NCBI GenBank assembly: GCA_050246315.1
Contig: JBFWWG010000010.1
Location: 1-64,000 of the forward strand
Direction of reading: 5' to 3'
DNA length: 64,000 bases
Origin: Nitrospiraceae bacterium
Lineage (GTDB): Bacteria; Nitrospirota; Nitrospiria; Nitrospirales; Nitrospiraceae
Positions 32,830 to 53,340 of the stretch are shown here, piece after piece. A model generated the notes under the pieces. It was not told the DNA's origin, searched no databases, and saw only the letters and a list, made by a program, of their open reading frames with translations. The position numbers and the translations under genes were made by a program. Positions within the stretch are counted from its first letter, which is position 1, and every line of letters starts with the position of its first letter.

Positions 32830-34008
32830 GTGAGCGCGCTCGATCCCCTCTTCGAGCCAGACTTGTTCCGACTTGGCGCAAAGCACTTACTCAGGCAGTG
32901 CCACGTCATCGAGTCCGCCTGTGCGCCCGAAGTCGTATATCAAGGACGCCCCCTCATCCTCATGGCGTCCAATGACTACCTCGGCCTGGCCAACCATCCT
33001 GCTGTCAAGGAGGCAGCGGCTCAGGCTATTCGGCACTATGGGGTTGGTGCCGGAGCCGCACGCCTGATATCGGGAACACAATCGCCGCACTATGACTTGG
33101 AATCCGCCTTGGCAAAATGGAAGGACGCTGAGGCTGCACTTTGTTTCAGTTCCGGCTATTTAGCGAACCTCGGCCTTATTTCAAGTCTGGCCGGTCCCCA
33201 AGACCTCATCCTGGCCGACCGCCTCTGTCACGCAAGCCTGATCGACGGCTGCCGCCTTGCCCGCTCACGGCTGCGCGTGTTCCACCACGCCGATATCGGC
33301 CATCTGGAACAGCTGCTCAAGAAGCGCCCCACCGTTCGCCGGACGCTCATCGTCACTGATGGCCTGTTCAGCATGGATGGAGATCTAGCGCCCCTCTCGG
33401 ATCTAGCCCGACTCGCCAATCAGTATGACTGTCTTCTAATCGTGGACGATGCGCACGGCACCGGCGTGATGGGCGCGCATGGGCGAGGGTCATTGGAAGC
33501 CTGCGGTGTCGAGGAAACCGTTCCCTTTCACATGGGAACCCTTGGGAAGGCACTCGGAACAAGCGGCGCCTACATCGTCGGCTCCGAAACCTTCGTCCGA
33601 TTTCTTCTGAATCGCGCTCGGACCTTCCTGTTCACCACGGCCCCTCCCGCCGCCATGGCGGCGGCCACGACCGCCGCACTCAAGGTGCTCCAACAAGAGC
33701 CAACCCGTCGCGACCGATTATGGGCGAATCGCGACAGGCTGTTCGAAGGTCTCACCAGATTGGGCCTCTCTCTGACGCCCACCGCCAGTCCAATACTTCC
33801 GGTTATCGTCGGGGATGAAGCACGCGCGCTGGAGATGGCCCAGGCCCTGCTGGACCGGGGGATTTATGCGCCGGCTGTCCGCCCCCCGACCGTTCCTCAG
33901 GGTAGCAGCCGAATCAGACTGACGGTGACAGCCGACCACACCCGGGAGCATCTGGACCGTGTGCTGCACGCGTTTCAAAACATTCTCCTATCGCATCCGC
34001 TGCCGTAG
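32830..34008 (+). CDS. bioF: 8-amino-7-oxononanoate synthase
   Basis: SNDYLGLA, SGYLAN, HASLIDG, DGLFSMDGD, VDDAHG, GTLGKALG. Confidence 0.93.
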   Translation: MSALDPLFEPDLFRLGAKHLLRQCHVIESACAPEVVYQGRPLILMASNDYLGLANHPAVKEAAAQAIRHYGVGAGAARLISGTQSPHYDLESALAKWKDAEAALCFSSGYLANLGLISSLAGPQDLILADRLCHASLIDGCRLARSRLRVFHHADIGHLEQLLKKRPTVRRTLIVTDGLFSMDGDLAPLSDLARLANQYDCLLIVDDAHGTGVMGAHGRGSLEACGVEETVPFHMGTLGKALGTSGAYIVGSETFVRFLLNRARTFLFTTAPPAAMAAATTAALKVLQQEPTRRDRLWANRDRLFEGLTRLGLSLTPTASPILPVIVGDEARALEMAQALLDRGIYAPAVRPPTVPQGSSRIRLTVTADHTREHLDRVLHAFQNILLSHPLP

Positions 34009-34214
34009 CCCACAGTTTTCATGAACGCTTCCGTTGCAGTCGCGGTCAGTAAGGCAAGACTCGCTTGAGGTGTCTACTCTCGCGCAACATCAATTAACTG
34101 GCGCTCGACCTCGCAAGCGCTTGGGACGGCGAGTTCGGCCGCGGTAGTCACACGGCCAGACTCGCCACCCGGTCGGTCAACAGACCGGTTCAAGTCTGCC
34201 TTGTATCATCATCT

Positions 34215-34380
34215 TGGAGCATATAGATGCTTGCCGATTCTTCGATAGGACGTGATAGATCGATCTGCCTCGGGTCGTCCAAGACCGGAAGGGAGCCCGA
34301 TCGTCACGTCCTCATCCACCCAAGCCCGAACAGTTGTCTGAGCCCCGAGCCCGTATCTATCGCAAGGTTGGGCGTCCCAT
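34215..34380 (+). ncRNA. Predicted IS110 bridge RNA
   Basis: 5' hairpin AGCAT/ATGCT; large stem AGGACGTGA/TCACGTCCT enclosing an internal loop whose segments match the insertion site; second stem-loop CCCAA..CC/GGTTGGG containing ACAGTTG, similar to the right-end donor. Confidence 0.7.
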
Positions 34381-34394
34381 CTCAAGGAGGACCG

Positions 34395-35345
34395 ATGCCA
34401 GACATGCCGATCTTTGTCGAATATTGATGTTTCCAAGACGCAGTTGGACCTGGCCGTGCGCCCCTCGGACGCGCGGGACACGCTAGTCCATGAGCGGTGG
34501 GGATTGACACGGTGGTCACCCATTTCAGTCAGGTCCCGCCGATCTTGATGGTACTGGCAGCCACGGGTGGGCTGGAGCGACCCCTGGTACGGGCGCTGGT
34601 CGCAGCCAGGTTGCCGCTGATTGTCGCGAATCCGCGACAGGTCCGAGACTGTGCCAAAGCGACCGGGCAATTGGCCAAGATCCATCGCCTGGATGCCGGG
34701 GTGCTGGCACGCTTTGCCGAGGCCGGCCAGCCCGTGCGCCGGCCGTATCCCGAGGCCGCCACGGAGGCGTTGGCGGCGCTGCTGGCGCGCCGCCGCCAGG
34801 TGATCGAGATGCTCACCACCGAAAAGAACCGGCTGAGTCCTGCCCCCAAGCCGATGCGCCGCTGGATCCACGCGCCTGTGCCCTGGCTCACGACCAAGCT
34901 GGCGCTGCTCGATGAGGAGCTTGATCATGCCATCCAGCAGCGCCCAGTTTGGCGAGAGCAGGAGGATTTGCTGTGGAGTGCCCCCGGGATTGGTCCCGTG
35001 GTGAGCCGGACCTTGCTGACTCACCTGCCTGGCCTGGCGACCCTGACCGGCAAGCCGATGGCCGCCCTGGTGGCCGTGGCTACCTTGACTTGCGATAGCG
35101 GCACCTTGCGAGGTCCGCGCCGGGTGTGGGGTGGCCGGGCTCCCGTCCGGGCAGCCCTGTATAGGGCCACCTTGGTGGCGACGAAGTGTACTTCCGGTGA
35201 TTCGCAATTTCTATCGCAGGCTGCGGGCCACCGACAAGGCGCCCAAAGTGGCCCTCGTGGCGTGCATGCGAAAGTTCCTGAGATTCTCAACGCGATGATG
35301 AAGCATTGTACGCCGTGGCGCTCCGTGGTGCCTCAGGGGACTTGA
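34395..35345 (+). pseudogene. IS110 DEDD recombinase/transposase pseudogene
   Basis: AGGAGG RBS; MPDMPIFV then a frameshift to IDVSKTQLDLA; LAATGGLE (E>A), NPRQVR, AKIHRLDA (TD>IH), PGIGP, DSG, GGRAPVRAALY; further frameshifts near 35190 and 35280. Confidence 0.88.
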
Positions 35346-35673
35346 CATTCAAGGCAGTGGCTCCCTCCTCGCGGCTCCGCGGCGGTACCCATTGCTCTTT
35401 CGATGCCATGGGTTCAGCGCGACGAACCGTCATGAATATTGTGGGCTAGTCATTTTCAGTAAATCCGCGCTTTCCGTCCTCCTGCCCACTACAGCCTCGC
35501 AGTCCGTGGGCTTTGCCGTTCGTAAACCTTTGCATCTTGGTGCGATTTTCTTGCGTTCCGACCTCACTATGGCATGATGCGACCAGCCGGAAACGACGCC
35601 TTTCTTTCGACATGCGAGGCCGGACCGGCATCATCTATACCTAATCCGCATTTTTCCAGGGGGGCGACGCGCA

Positions 35674-36720
35674 ATGGATATTTCCCAACTGCTCAGTTTC
35701 GGCGTGAAGGAGGGCGCATCGGACTGCCATCTCAGCGCGGGCGAACCGCCAATGCTGCGGCTCCACGGCGACATGAAAAAAGTGGACATGCCTCCCATGA
35801 CACAGGAGCAGGTCCATTCACTTGTCTACGACATCATGAGCGACGCCCAAAGAAAGAACTTTGAAGAGAATCTGGAATGTGATTTCTCTTTCGCGCTAGG
35901 TGATATCTCCCGATTCCGCGTGAATGTGTTTCTTCAGAACCGTGGATTAGCGGCGGTGTTTCGAACCATTCCGACGGAGATACTTCCACTGGAGAAATTA
36001 GGGATGCCCCCGATCGTCCGCCAGCTCTGCGACCGTGAAAAGGGCCTCATTCTCGTGACCGGACCAACTGGATCGGGCAAGTCCACCACGCTGGCCGGGA
36101 TGATCGACTATCTGAATAATTTGTACGAAGGGCACGTCATTACCATCGAAGATCCGATCGAGTTTGTGCACAAGTCGAAGAAATGTCTCGTCAACCAGCG
36201 AGAACTCGGCGTGCACACCAAGTCCTTTGCCAACGCGCTCCGATCCGCACTGCGGGAAGATCCTGATATCGTCCTGGTCGGTGAAATGCGAGATCTCGAA
36301 ACCATTCAATTGGCGCTCACCGCGGCGGAAACAGGCCACCTGGTCTTCGCCACCCTGCATACGTCCAGTGCGCCAAAGACGGTGGATCGGATCATCGACG
36401 CCTTTCCGCCCAATCAGCAGGCACAGGTACGAACCCAGCTTGCCGAAGCCCTCGAGGCGGTGCTGACGCAGACCCTGGTCAAGAAGAAGGCAGGAGGACG
36501 CGCCGCCGCCGTGGAGATTTTGGTCGCCACCACCGCCATCCGCAATCTCATCCGAGAGCAGAAGCTCCACCAAATCCCCGGCCTGATGCAGGCCAGTCAG
36601 AAGGAAGGGATGCAGACCATGGACATGGCACTGCTCGATCTGGCCACGCGGGGCATGATTACCAAAGCTGAGGCCCAATCGCGCAGCATGAACCCGAATC
36701 TATTCGCCAACGCCGTGTAG
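35674..36720 (+). CDS. pilT: Type IV pilus retraction ATPase
   Basis: GPTGSGKSTT, TIEDPIE, LREDPDIVLVGEMRD, AIRNLIRE. Confidence 0.96.
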   Translation: MDISQLLSFGVKEGASDCHLSAGEPPMLRLHGDMKKVDMPPMTQEQVHSLVYDIMSDAQRKNFEENLECDFSFALGDISRFRVNVFLQNRGLAAVFRTIPTEILPLEKLGMPPIVRQLCDREKGLILVTGPTGSGKSTTLAGMIDYLNNLYEGHVITIEDPIEFVHKSKKCLVNQRELGVHTKSFANALRSALREDPDIVLVGEMRDLETIQLALTAAETGHLVFATLHTSSAPKTVDRIIDAFPPNQQAQVRTQLAEALEAVLTQTLVKKKAGGRAAAVEILVATTAIRNLIREQKLHQIPGLMQASQKEGMQTMDMALLDLATRGMITKAEAQSRSMNPNLFANAV

Positions 36721-52330: not shown

Positions 52331-53340
52331 TCAATTGGCGACTTCGTCGATGATTGTGGATCGGATGAGTGCTCTCCACTGCTCGGTGGCGGACTCCTTG
52401 GTCAAGGAGCCCGTGGTGGCGGTCACCCTCGTGACCTGTTCGGTTTCTCAATCGTTGCGGACGGGCACGCCGAGGACCAACGACCTGATATTGGCCCGGT
52501 TGATCACGCGCGTGGCATCGATGCTGTCCATGCAAGGCATACTCACATCCATGACAACCACATCCGGCGACAGGCTGTGCGCCAGTTCGATCGCTTCGAT
52601 GCCGTTGCCGGCTTCGCTGAAGATGCAGACATCCTCGTACCCTTCTAACCCGCATTATTCATGACCGCTGCTACTGCAACCGCCGATACGCCGCTGCGAC
52701 AGGCTTGGCTGCCGGTCTCCCGCACCCAAGCGGGCAGGCTCGCCGCTCGGTCGGTCGACATACGGTTTCAAGTATGCCTTCCTTCCTCGCGGCCCCGCGT
52801 GCCCGTCTCGCGTAGCGTCTTGGCGGTTTCGTCACGAACCGTCATGAATAATGCGGGCTAACCTGCTCCGCAGCCCATGCCACACCATCGCATGGTCATC
52901 GACCAGCGGGACGCGAATCACCTTGCTCTTGTAGGAACCGCGAGGTACGGGGCCCTGGTGAAGCGTCTCATGAGACGCCGAAGGGTGAGCCGATTTCGCG
53001 ACCGGCATCCTCTGTTCTTGGGACACCACAGTGGCCGCGTGTTCGGAGTGACACACGTCACGCCCCTTCCCTACCCAGTATTGGAATCGATCACCGACGT
53101 GCCACCCATGCCCGTCATCCACTCGCCAATACTGCAGGGTCCGAACCGTAACGGCATCGTCCCGTAGATAGCCCGCTCAGTGAACTCTTCCACCCGTCCC
53201 TGGTCGATCTCGGCGATATACAACCGTTGTTGCGATCGCGTCAACTCCTCGGTCCTCTCCGTGACCCGAATTTCCAACCCTTCCGTCAATTGCTGCAATG
53301 ATGCTTCGGCCCGTTTCCGCTCGGTGATGCACGCATCATG
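52331..53340 (-). pseudogene. Collapsed sensor kinase/NarL-type receiver pseudogene, split by a MITE
   Basis: PAC-coiled-coil remnant ITERKRAEASLQQL...RVTERTEEL; receiver IRVPLVDDHAMV...GLRSRL|EGYEDV...EAGNGIEAIELA...PDVVVMDVSMP; internal TGA at 52448-52450. Confidence 0.75.
52649..52857 (+). mobile_element. MITE-like non-autonomous element, copy 2 (209 bp)
   Basis: Perfect 17-bp TIRs CCCGCATTATTCATGAC / GTCATGAATAATGCGGG; CTAA duplicated at 52645-52648 and 52858-52861; removing it restores the receiver-domain frame. Confidence 0.92.

Follow-up and report, generated by a model that had tools for sequence, protein, structure and literature searches.

Structure of the locus

The window (the whole stretch of DNA that we analysed, 64,000 nucleotides in length) holds an insertion sequence of the IS110 group, together with both halves of the repeat into which it was inserted and, further along, an empty copy of that repeat. 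The ends of the element, 34202 and 35362, were placed from an alignment with 30 homologues, and its anatomy is observed directly:

34006-34201 (+), left part of the target repeat, ending TCTGC plus CT, homologous to the left flank of a paralogous element (L002) and to the empty copy; outer end approximate
34200-34201 (+), left copy of the CT core, immediately 5' of TGTATC, as it is in the aligned homologues too
34202-35362 (+), IS110-group (IS621-like) insertion sequence, 1161 bp including one CT, decayed
34395-35345 (+), pseudogene of an IS110-family DEDD recombinase, from Pfam matches and frame analysis
35361-35362 (+), right copy of the CT core, from sequence reading
35363-35449 (+), right part of the target repeat, starting CCCT, assigned by homology; terminal inverted arm GTCATGAATATTGTGGGCTA at ~35429-35448
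52646-52860 (+), empty MITE-like copy, its centre TATGC-CT-TCCT being TATGCCTTCCT at 52773-52783

The CT core is found at both element ends. At the left junction the flank TCTGCCT (34195-34201) is followed by TGTATCAT, and the right flank starts CTCCCT (35361-35366). Among the 30 homologues, the right core is CT in 29 and CA in one.

The open reading frame at 34497-35345 matches two Pfam families, DEDD_Tnp_IS110 (PF01548; E 6.6e-11, 42.7 bits, cut-off 29) and Transposase_20 (PF02371; E 1.5e-7, 32.1 bits, cut-off 21.3). The protein of the paralogue L002 matches the solved transposases of IS621 (8wt6; E 1.6e-31) and ISCro4 (9t56; E 2.7e-31). The gene in the window is dead. It contains four frame changes between 34395 and 35345; moreover, the conserved E of the EATGG motif is replaced by A (AATGG) and the first D of KTDALDA by H (KIHRLDA). 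Alignment with IS621 and the list of IS621 residues suggest that the replaced E and D correspond to catalytic acidic residues. When the whole assembly was searched with PF02371, four places were found and none of them holds an intact gene: the window copy, L002 with one frameshift, and two fragments. The window copy is no longer self-mobile. At columns that are at least 90% conserved in 28 other full elements, it agrees in 50/51 positions of the two loops described below, in 302/329 of the ORF and in 9/11 of the right-end tip, the difference in preservation pointing towards better kept loops but not being significant (~0.1 by our own rough binomial estimate, made without a tool).

Both flanks belong to a MITE-like repeat of ~215-300 bp that is dispersed in the genome. 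The right flank has 48 genome matches and the left flank 32 at E up to 10, 13 of these below 0.001. The empty copy in the window is ~215 bp long and has 46-nt imperfect terminal inverted arms that are 76% complementary; used as a query, it gives at least 66 genome alignments that span the repeat centre. The genome-wide flank matches and the empty copy thus place the element in the middle of a MITE-like repeat, in agreement with the earlier proposal of such an insertion. The left half of the occupied repeat is ~60 nt longer than in the empty copy (34104-34166) and includes two short palindromes, one at 34104-34133 and one formed by 34128-34141 with 34153-34166.

A conserved two-module RNA structure in the left end

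Of 201 same-order genomes searched with the protein, 57 gave matches, and 30 loci were taken from these (set 1); together with the window copy they form a structure alignment of 31 rows. The structural features of the window copy are as follows:

34218-34231 (+), 5' stem-loop (AGCAU, loop AUAG, AUGCU), from the MFE fold
34247-34312 (+), target-binding loop module with outer stem, second stem, internal loop and inner hairpin, from RNAalifold and pair counts
34247-34255 and 34304-34312 (+), outer stem of that module, AGGACGTGA and TCACGTCCT
34258-34262 and 34298-34302 (+), second stem, GATCG and CGATC
34273-34276 and 34283-34286 (+), inner hairpin, GGTC and GACC
34324-34373 (+), donor-binding loop module, with outer stem GCCCG/UGGGC and inner hairpin 34340-34343/34349-34352

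The RNAalifold consensus consists of a target module (outer stem, second stem, inner hairpin) and a donor module (outer stem, inner hairpin), and it leaves the guide segments unpaired, in internal loops in both stem-loops. This conserved structure is a direct observation: over the 31 rows 97.9% of the cells are paired and 13 of the 29 pairs show compensatory changes, a level of pairing that none of 500 shuffles reached and that compares with 29-45% in slid controls. Within the target module, helix 1 has 13 pairs, nine of them with a compensatory change and 97.5% of the cells paired, and helix 2 has four pairs, all paired. The window copy keeps 17/17 pairs of the target-binding module; in its donor loop, the inner hairpin carries one A-C mismatch at 34341. 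The region of the 5' stem-loop is variable among homologues and lies outside the consensus structure. L089, an otherwise normal homologue, has lost 7 nt (alignment columns 113-119), and with them some of the second stem as well as the end of the right target guide that binds the core.

A covariance model built from the set 1 alignment matches the window at 34202-34376 (+). Run on a second set of 80 loci (set 2, see below), it matched 78, upstream of the gene and on the same strand. The fold and covariance-model check that had been proposed with the first-pass annotation recovered the two-module structure, with its compensatory changes, across the homologues. A scan of 33500-36000 against Rfam with E up to 1 returned two matches far below the gathering scores, none inside 34202-34395.

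The single-sequence fold of the window copy has an energy of -67.8 kcal/mol (z -2.05, with 4/200 shuffles as good) and keeps the stems of the family. It also pairs the left with the right target guide through six pairs, and forbidding this helix costs ~10.8 kcal/mol. A fold that buries the guide segments in stems was named in the first-pass annotation as refuting it, and on this point the outcome is divided: the fold of the window copy pairs the two guides with each other, against its reading, and the family consensus leaves both unpaired, in its favour. The pairing arises in the window copy because its two targets, CTGCCT on the left and CTCCCT on the right, are almost identical words. As a real structural element the intra-loop helix was rejected: in the family 49.5% of the cells are paired, 435/500 shuffles score as high, and slid controls do no worse.

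The layout of an IS621-type bridge RNA, which the earlier annotation had taken as established, is supported by the Pfam domains of the adjacent gene, by the likeness of the recombinase to that of IS621 and by the consensus structure with its compensatory changes. The non-coding left end (~34216-34375) encodes, judging from its sequence, a bridge RNA.

The target guides and the insertion site

The internal loop of the target-binding module carries the following segments:

34264-34271 (+), left loop segment TCTGCCTC, from sequence reading
34264-34270 (+), left target guide (LTG) TCTGCCT, 7/7 to the left flank 34195-34201
34290-34295 (+), right target guide (RTG) AGGGAG, reverse complement of CTCCCT (35361-35366), 6/6
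34296-34297 (+), CC, candidate for the handshake guide in the target loop, a role taken by analogy from IS621 positions 81-82

The stems of the target loop, its inner hairpin and both loop segments lie where the first-pass annotation had placed them, and its two sequence identities hold. The first seven nucleotides of the left loop segment are those of the left flank and the eighth is C35363, the first base past the right-hand core, in keeping with its reading of this segment as the target top strand; the reverse complementarity of AGGGAG to the right flank extends over all six positions, the seventh being mismatched. The LTG has the same sense as the top strand of the left flank and would therefore pair with the bottom strand. 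Both guides take in the CT core. TCTGCCT followed after 10-30 nucleotides by AGGGAG occurs once in the 64-kb window, both strands considered; shuffled sequences hold a mean of 0.03 such occurrences, with at least one match in 3/100. The first C of the candidate handshake guide (34296) could pair with donor position 7, a G.

The empty copy at 52773-52783 does mismatch both guides, as had been noted before, with one position differing on each side. The further suggestion that this mismatch explains why the copy is unoccupied did not hold up. The exact 11-nt target TCTGC-CT-CCCT has six further occurrences in the genome (~3 being expected from composition), four of them in copies of the repeat, and these four perfectly matching copies are empty too. 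Because the recombinase gene is dead as well, the mismatch is not needed to explain the empty copy.

Guides and flanks covary

Agreement between guides and flanks was scored in set 1 at five non-core positions per side, with two LTG registers allowed in own and control comparisons alike. On the left side (n=31) the agreement is 5/5 in 20 loci, 4/5 in nine, 3/5 in one and 2/5 in one; on the right side (n=30 with a right flank) it is 5/5 in 20, 4/5 in eight and 3/5 in two. Collapsed to 20 guide classes, 182/200 non-core positions match, against a mean of 89 and a maximum of 123 for shuffled pairings, and 0/10000 shuffles reach the observed value.

Set 2 comprises 80 loci from MAG records assigned to Nitrospira, Nitrospirales, Gemmatimonadota, Methylomirabilota, delta- and other proteobacteria, and others. 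Eighteen matches were left out (eight had no right end or a short flank, five did not start TGTAT-like, four had a doubtful right end and one had no left flank). The 60 usable loci form 41 classes, in which 362/410 positions match (shuffled mean 180, maximum 222). Restricted to the 30 classes whose left loop falls outside the training rows, the count is 264/300 (shuffled mean 134, maximum 173; 0/10000 reach the observed value). Shuffled guide-flank pairings agree at ~45% of positions. Since the sets share some copies and kin are not independent, these shuffle tests overstate independence, though classes were collapsed first. The covariation of guides with flanks is observed directly, and the check that the first-pass annotation had named, covariation of the loop segments with their flanks across homologues, comes out in its favour in both sets (182/200 and 264/300, with 0/10000 shuffles as high).

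The same genome offers a more local comparison, through one further element and one fragment:

C10:117980-119083 (within C10:116480-120583), minus strand, paralogue L002, 68% identical, at the same MITE position in another copy of the repeat
L003 1440-1735, equal to C3 ~336150-336450, fragment L003, the last ~85 codons plus the right end of an L002-like element, with the 5' side cut off

In L002 the LTG reads TATGCCT, as does its left flank, and the RTG GCCGAG fits the right flank CTCGGG at 5/6 positions. In L003 the right flank CTCGGC fits the RTG of L002 at 6/6, and the right end ACAGTTG equals the donor-loop word. Comparing the guide words and flanks of the window copy with those of L002 and L003, we find that guides and flanks changed together. 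The claim that the window holds a natural guide-target pair thereby gains support from three sides, as guides covary with flanks in the same-genome paralogue and in the two homologue sets. The recombinase frame of L002 is broken once, at a G run in the EATGG region, which might reflect either a genuine frameshift or a fault in the assembly. The centre of the MITE-like repeat is a target common to both IS110 paralogues.

No close orthologue of the window copy was found in three other genomes of the genus, the best match there being 68% identical. In a complete genome of the same genus (G203, contig C1), a relative is present in at least ten copies; its left loop word is TACGCCT and its right guide GGCCGAG (L177, L181), and its matches continue into the right-hand portion of the MITE family found in the window. 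Judged by these copies, it looks like an active element.

The donor loop, candidate handshake bases and a predicted split promoter

Additional features concern the donor side and the two tips of the element:

34204-34209 (+), candidate -10 box TATCAT, from sequence reading
34330-34336 (+), left donor guide (LDG) ACAGTTG, matching the right end in most homologues
34355-34356 or 34359-34360, plus 34363-34366 (+), right donor guide (RDG), discontiguous: AU at either of the first two positions, then CAAG
34367 (+), candidate handshake guide of the donor loop, G, the base after CAAG, by analogy to IS621
35342-35347 (+), candidate -35 box TTGACA, overlapping the stop codon, from sequence reading
35354-35360 (+), left donor GCAGTGG of the right end, followed by the right core CT (to 35362), from sequence reading

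The LDG agrees with the window's own right end, GCAGTGG, at 5/7 positions, which bears out the resemblance that had been pointed out earlier. Right ends of homologues mostly read ACAGTTG, with exceptions that include ACAGGTG, ACGGTTG and ACAGTCG, and in L083, L087 and L091 the LDG bears the same change as the right end. The right end of the window copy fits decay after insertion.

For the right donor guide, the first-pass annotation had reported the lack of a clean match. The discontiguous guide of IS621, applied here as CAAG with an upstream AU, accounts for it. In the descriptions of IS621, nine RNA bases pair discontiguously with seven donor bases (PMC11208160; PMC11208158), and in its structure A157-U158 and C162-G165 pair with dT14-dA13 and dG11-dC8 (PMC11208158; PMC11208160). 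CAAG complements the core CT plus TG and is invariant in 31/31 rows.

The base after CAAG covaries with target position 7, the base that precedes the core, in 31/31 rows (28 C:G and three T:A), the three T:A rows representing two lineages or more. In 28/31 rows the RTG is followed by C, and all of the 30 homologues have G at donor position 7. Neither handshake base is able to pair with its own cognate position 7.

If the right and left ends (RE and LE) were joined, TTGACA would be followed by 15 nt to the end of the core, TG and TATCAT, i.e. a predicted promoter with a 17-nt spacer that would exist in the circular form only. TTGACA stands at the 17-nt spacing in 16/30 homologues. A scan of the integrated left end for promoter- or terminator-like sites found none. 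For IS621, excision is described as rebuilding a promoter across the RE-LE junction (PMC11208160), and the bridge RNA as weakly expressed from integrated loci (PMC13626964).

Occurrence in DNA and RNA libraries

The occupied locus is present in DNA runs from several wastewater, sludge and bioreactor studies and in some RNA libraries. Four runs were examined as assembled contigs, with a depth of 3-10 in the RNA libraries; such contigs show presence, and not transcript ends, strand or level. One DNA contig (1555 nt, 34002-35556) shows no difference from the window. A contig of 1531 nt (34026-35556, depth 5.6) from an RNA library covers the entire element and both junctions; another run of the same study gave a contig of 255 nt (34099-34353), and an RNA library of a different study one of 751 nt (34346-35095). 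The RNA-library contigs may reflect read-through transcripts or DNA carry-over. In the contigs of the four runs we saw neither the empty-site form nor the circle junction.

Likeness to known systems

As far as sequence can tell, the window shows all the features that define a bridge RNA element of the IS621 type within the IS110 group. IS621 of E. coli, with its 177-nt bridge RNA (PMC11208160; PMC11208158), is the closest point of reference. As IS621 is described there, the two share the same two recombinase domains, with detectable homology, and an RNA that the left end encodes ahead of the gene, in which a 5' hairpin is followed by two stem-loops with internal loops. Both have an LTG in the sense of the left target and an RTG complementary to the right target, with the CT core in both guides; in IS621 the LTG pairs with the bottom strand and the RTG with the top strand, core included (PMC11208160). 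Both have a discontiguous RDG ending in CAAG, and the right donor of the window, CT-TGTAT, has the letters of IS621 dC8 to dT14. A handshake base follows each right guide in either system, and a sigma-70-type promoter is split over the RE-LE junction (in the window, as predicted from the sequence). Additionally, the natural targets of both lie in dispersed repeats, namely REP elements for IS621 and the centre of a MITE-like repeat of ~215-300 bp for the window element. There are also differences. The host lineage is another one, the relatives of the window element coming from Nitrospira, Nitrospirales and other soil and water MAGs. Its left target comprises 5 nt plus the core and its right target at least 4 nt past the core, compared with the 11-bp wild-type target and 4-bp RTG given for IS621. 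Finally, unlike IS621, the window copy is a pseudogene and is known here from sequence alone.

ISCro4 (PDB 9t56), the second IS110-family recombinase with a solved structure, is likened to the window element through the protein match alone. The IS1111 group, as described, has the same recombinase family and an RNA-guided choice of target (bridge RNA or seekRNA), its RNAs being encoded in the right end of elements that bear long sub-terminal inverted repeats; the RNA of the window element is in its left end. Membership of that group was rejected on the position of the RNA and on a right end that extends only ~17 nt past the stop codon. By description, ISPpu9 and ISPpu10 of Pseudomonas putida (PMC12288879; 10.64898/2026.03.19.712850) are also comparable: they are IS110-family elements with all copies in one intergenic repeat family, and the preprint (10.64898/2026.03.19.712850) describes an added structural layer of target recognition in them.

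Interpretation

We consider it very probable that 34202-35362 is a decayed IS621-type IS110 element, that its left end is a bridge RNA and that the guides of this RNA still spell the target at the MITE centre. With its recombinase gene reduced to a pseudogene, the element preserves the guide-target pair as a fossil. By analogy with IS621, a working element would excise as a circle, and the joining of RE to LE would set TTGACA 17 nt upstream of TATCAT and drive transcription of the bridge RNA. The donor-binding loop would then hold the circle junction ACAGTTG-CT-TGTAT and the target-binding loop the target, both guides taking in the CT core, and the DEDD/serine recombinase would swap strands at CT. 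The target here would have been the centre of the MITE-like repeat, TCTGC-CT-CCCT. Transcription from the junction promoter, the chemistry of pairing and an insertion guided by the RNA of the window, or by that of an identical sibling, are inferred from the work on IS621.

How far could other explanations account for the same observations? Hairpins that happen to carry words of the flanks, with no RNA guide behind them, would agree with a single-sequence fold that beats its shuffles modestly (z -2.05, 4/200 as good) and with the lack of an Rfam match. Against it, both the structure and the guide-flank agreement covary in two homologue sets with no shuffle as high, and the handshake base covaries in 31/31 rows; of all explanations we regard this one as the least probable, to the point of being negligible. 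It is conceivable, albeit very unlikely, that the element is a bridge-RNA element whose own guides did not pick the site, either because a sibling RNA with other guides did so or because the loops changed after insertion, in which case part of the present match would be coincidence. Imperfect matches do occur in set 1, where at least one left-target mismatch occurs in 11/31 loci and at least one right-target mismatch in 10/30, and a 2026 preprint describes half-match recombination and off-target insertion. In the window copy, however, 13/13 guide positions match, later mutation would erode such a match rather than create it, and the guide pattern is expected only 0.03 times in the whole window.

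Alternatively, the RNA of the dead element might have been kept by selection, co-opted by the host or by another element, for example to guide a recombinase encoded at another locus or to serve as a regulatory small RNA. What speaks for this is that 17/17 pairs of the target module are intact and the guides still agree with the flanks, in an element whose ORF carries four frame changes along with two catalytic substitutions; that the window agrees at 50/51 conserved columns in the loops against 302/329 in the ORF; and that RNA-library contigs cover the region. Yet the contrast in preservation (1/51 against 27/329) gives ~0.1 in our rough binomial estimate and is not significant, the PF02371 search finds no intact gene among its four places in the genome, conservation over time is not demonstrable with no close orthologue in three other genomes of the genus, and the RNA-library contigs are unable to show a discrete transcript. 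We give selection on the RNA very little credence. The same low probability applies to its more specific form, in which the target-binding module would have been retained for a function that it still performs: it might serve to guide a recombinase provided in trans, or might act as a small RNA on the numerous MITE copies in which its target word is found.

Under the preferred reading of a decayed bridge-RNA element, the 'intergenic' stretch at 34.2-35.4 kb, which probably has a bioF gene on one side and a pilT gene on the other, is to be annotated as a fossil mobile element within a repeat, and not as host regulatory sequence. In principle little of this is new: bridge RNAs and the covariation with natural targets have been known since 2024 from thousands of IS110 elements, and bridge RNAs were discovered through the natural covariation of their loops, with 5,511 target pairs and 2,201 donor pairs reported (PMC11208160). 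The value of the locus lies in being a very clean natural worked example, in which the handshake-guide rule is legible from natural sequences. Moreover, two diverged paralogues in one genome target the same position of a MITE family with different guide words. The family spans Nitrospirales and several other phyla, offering many natural guide-target pairs and, within the same genus, an intact multi-copy relative.

Irregular ends among the homologues

Some homologues depart from the usual arrangement at their ends. In L073, L080, L085 and L089 the right end lies 115-129 nt past the end of the recombinase match, compared with ~30 nt usually, and an extra segment of ~90-100 nt stands between the gene and the right end. 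L079 and L087 have a tandem duplication of the left-end tip, comprising the first 18 nt in L079 and the first 14 nt in L087, each unit ending CT; for these two loci the outer boundary was scored. The LTG fits the outer boundary better than the inner one in both (4/5 against 0 in L079, 5/5 against 1 in L087), and a second recombination, at an internal CT, may have left the duplication behind.
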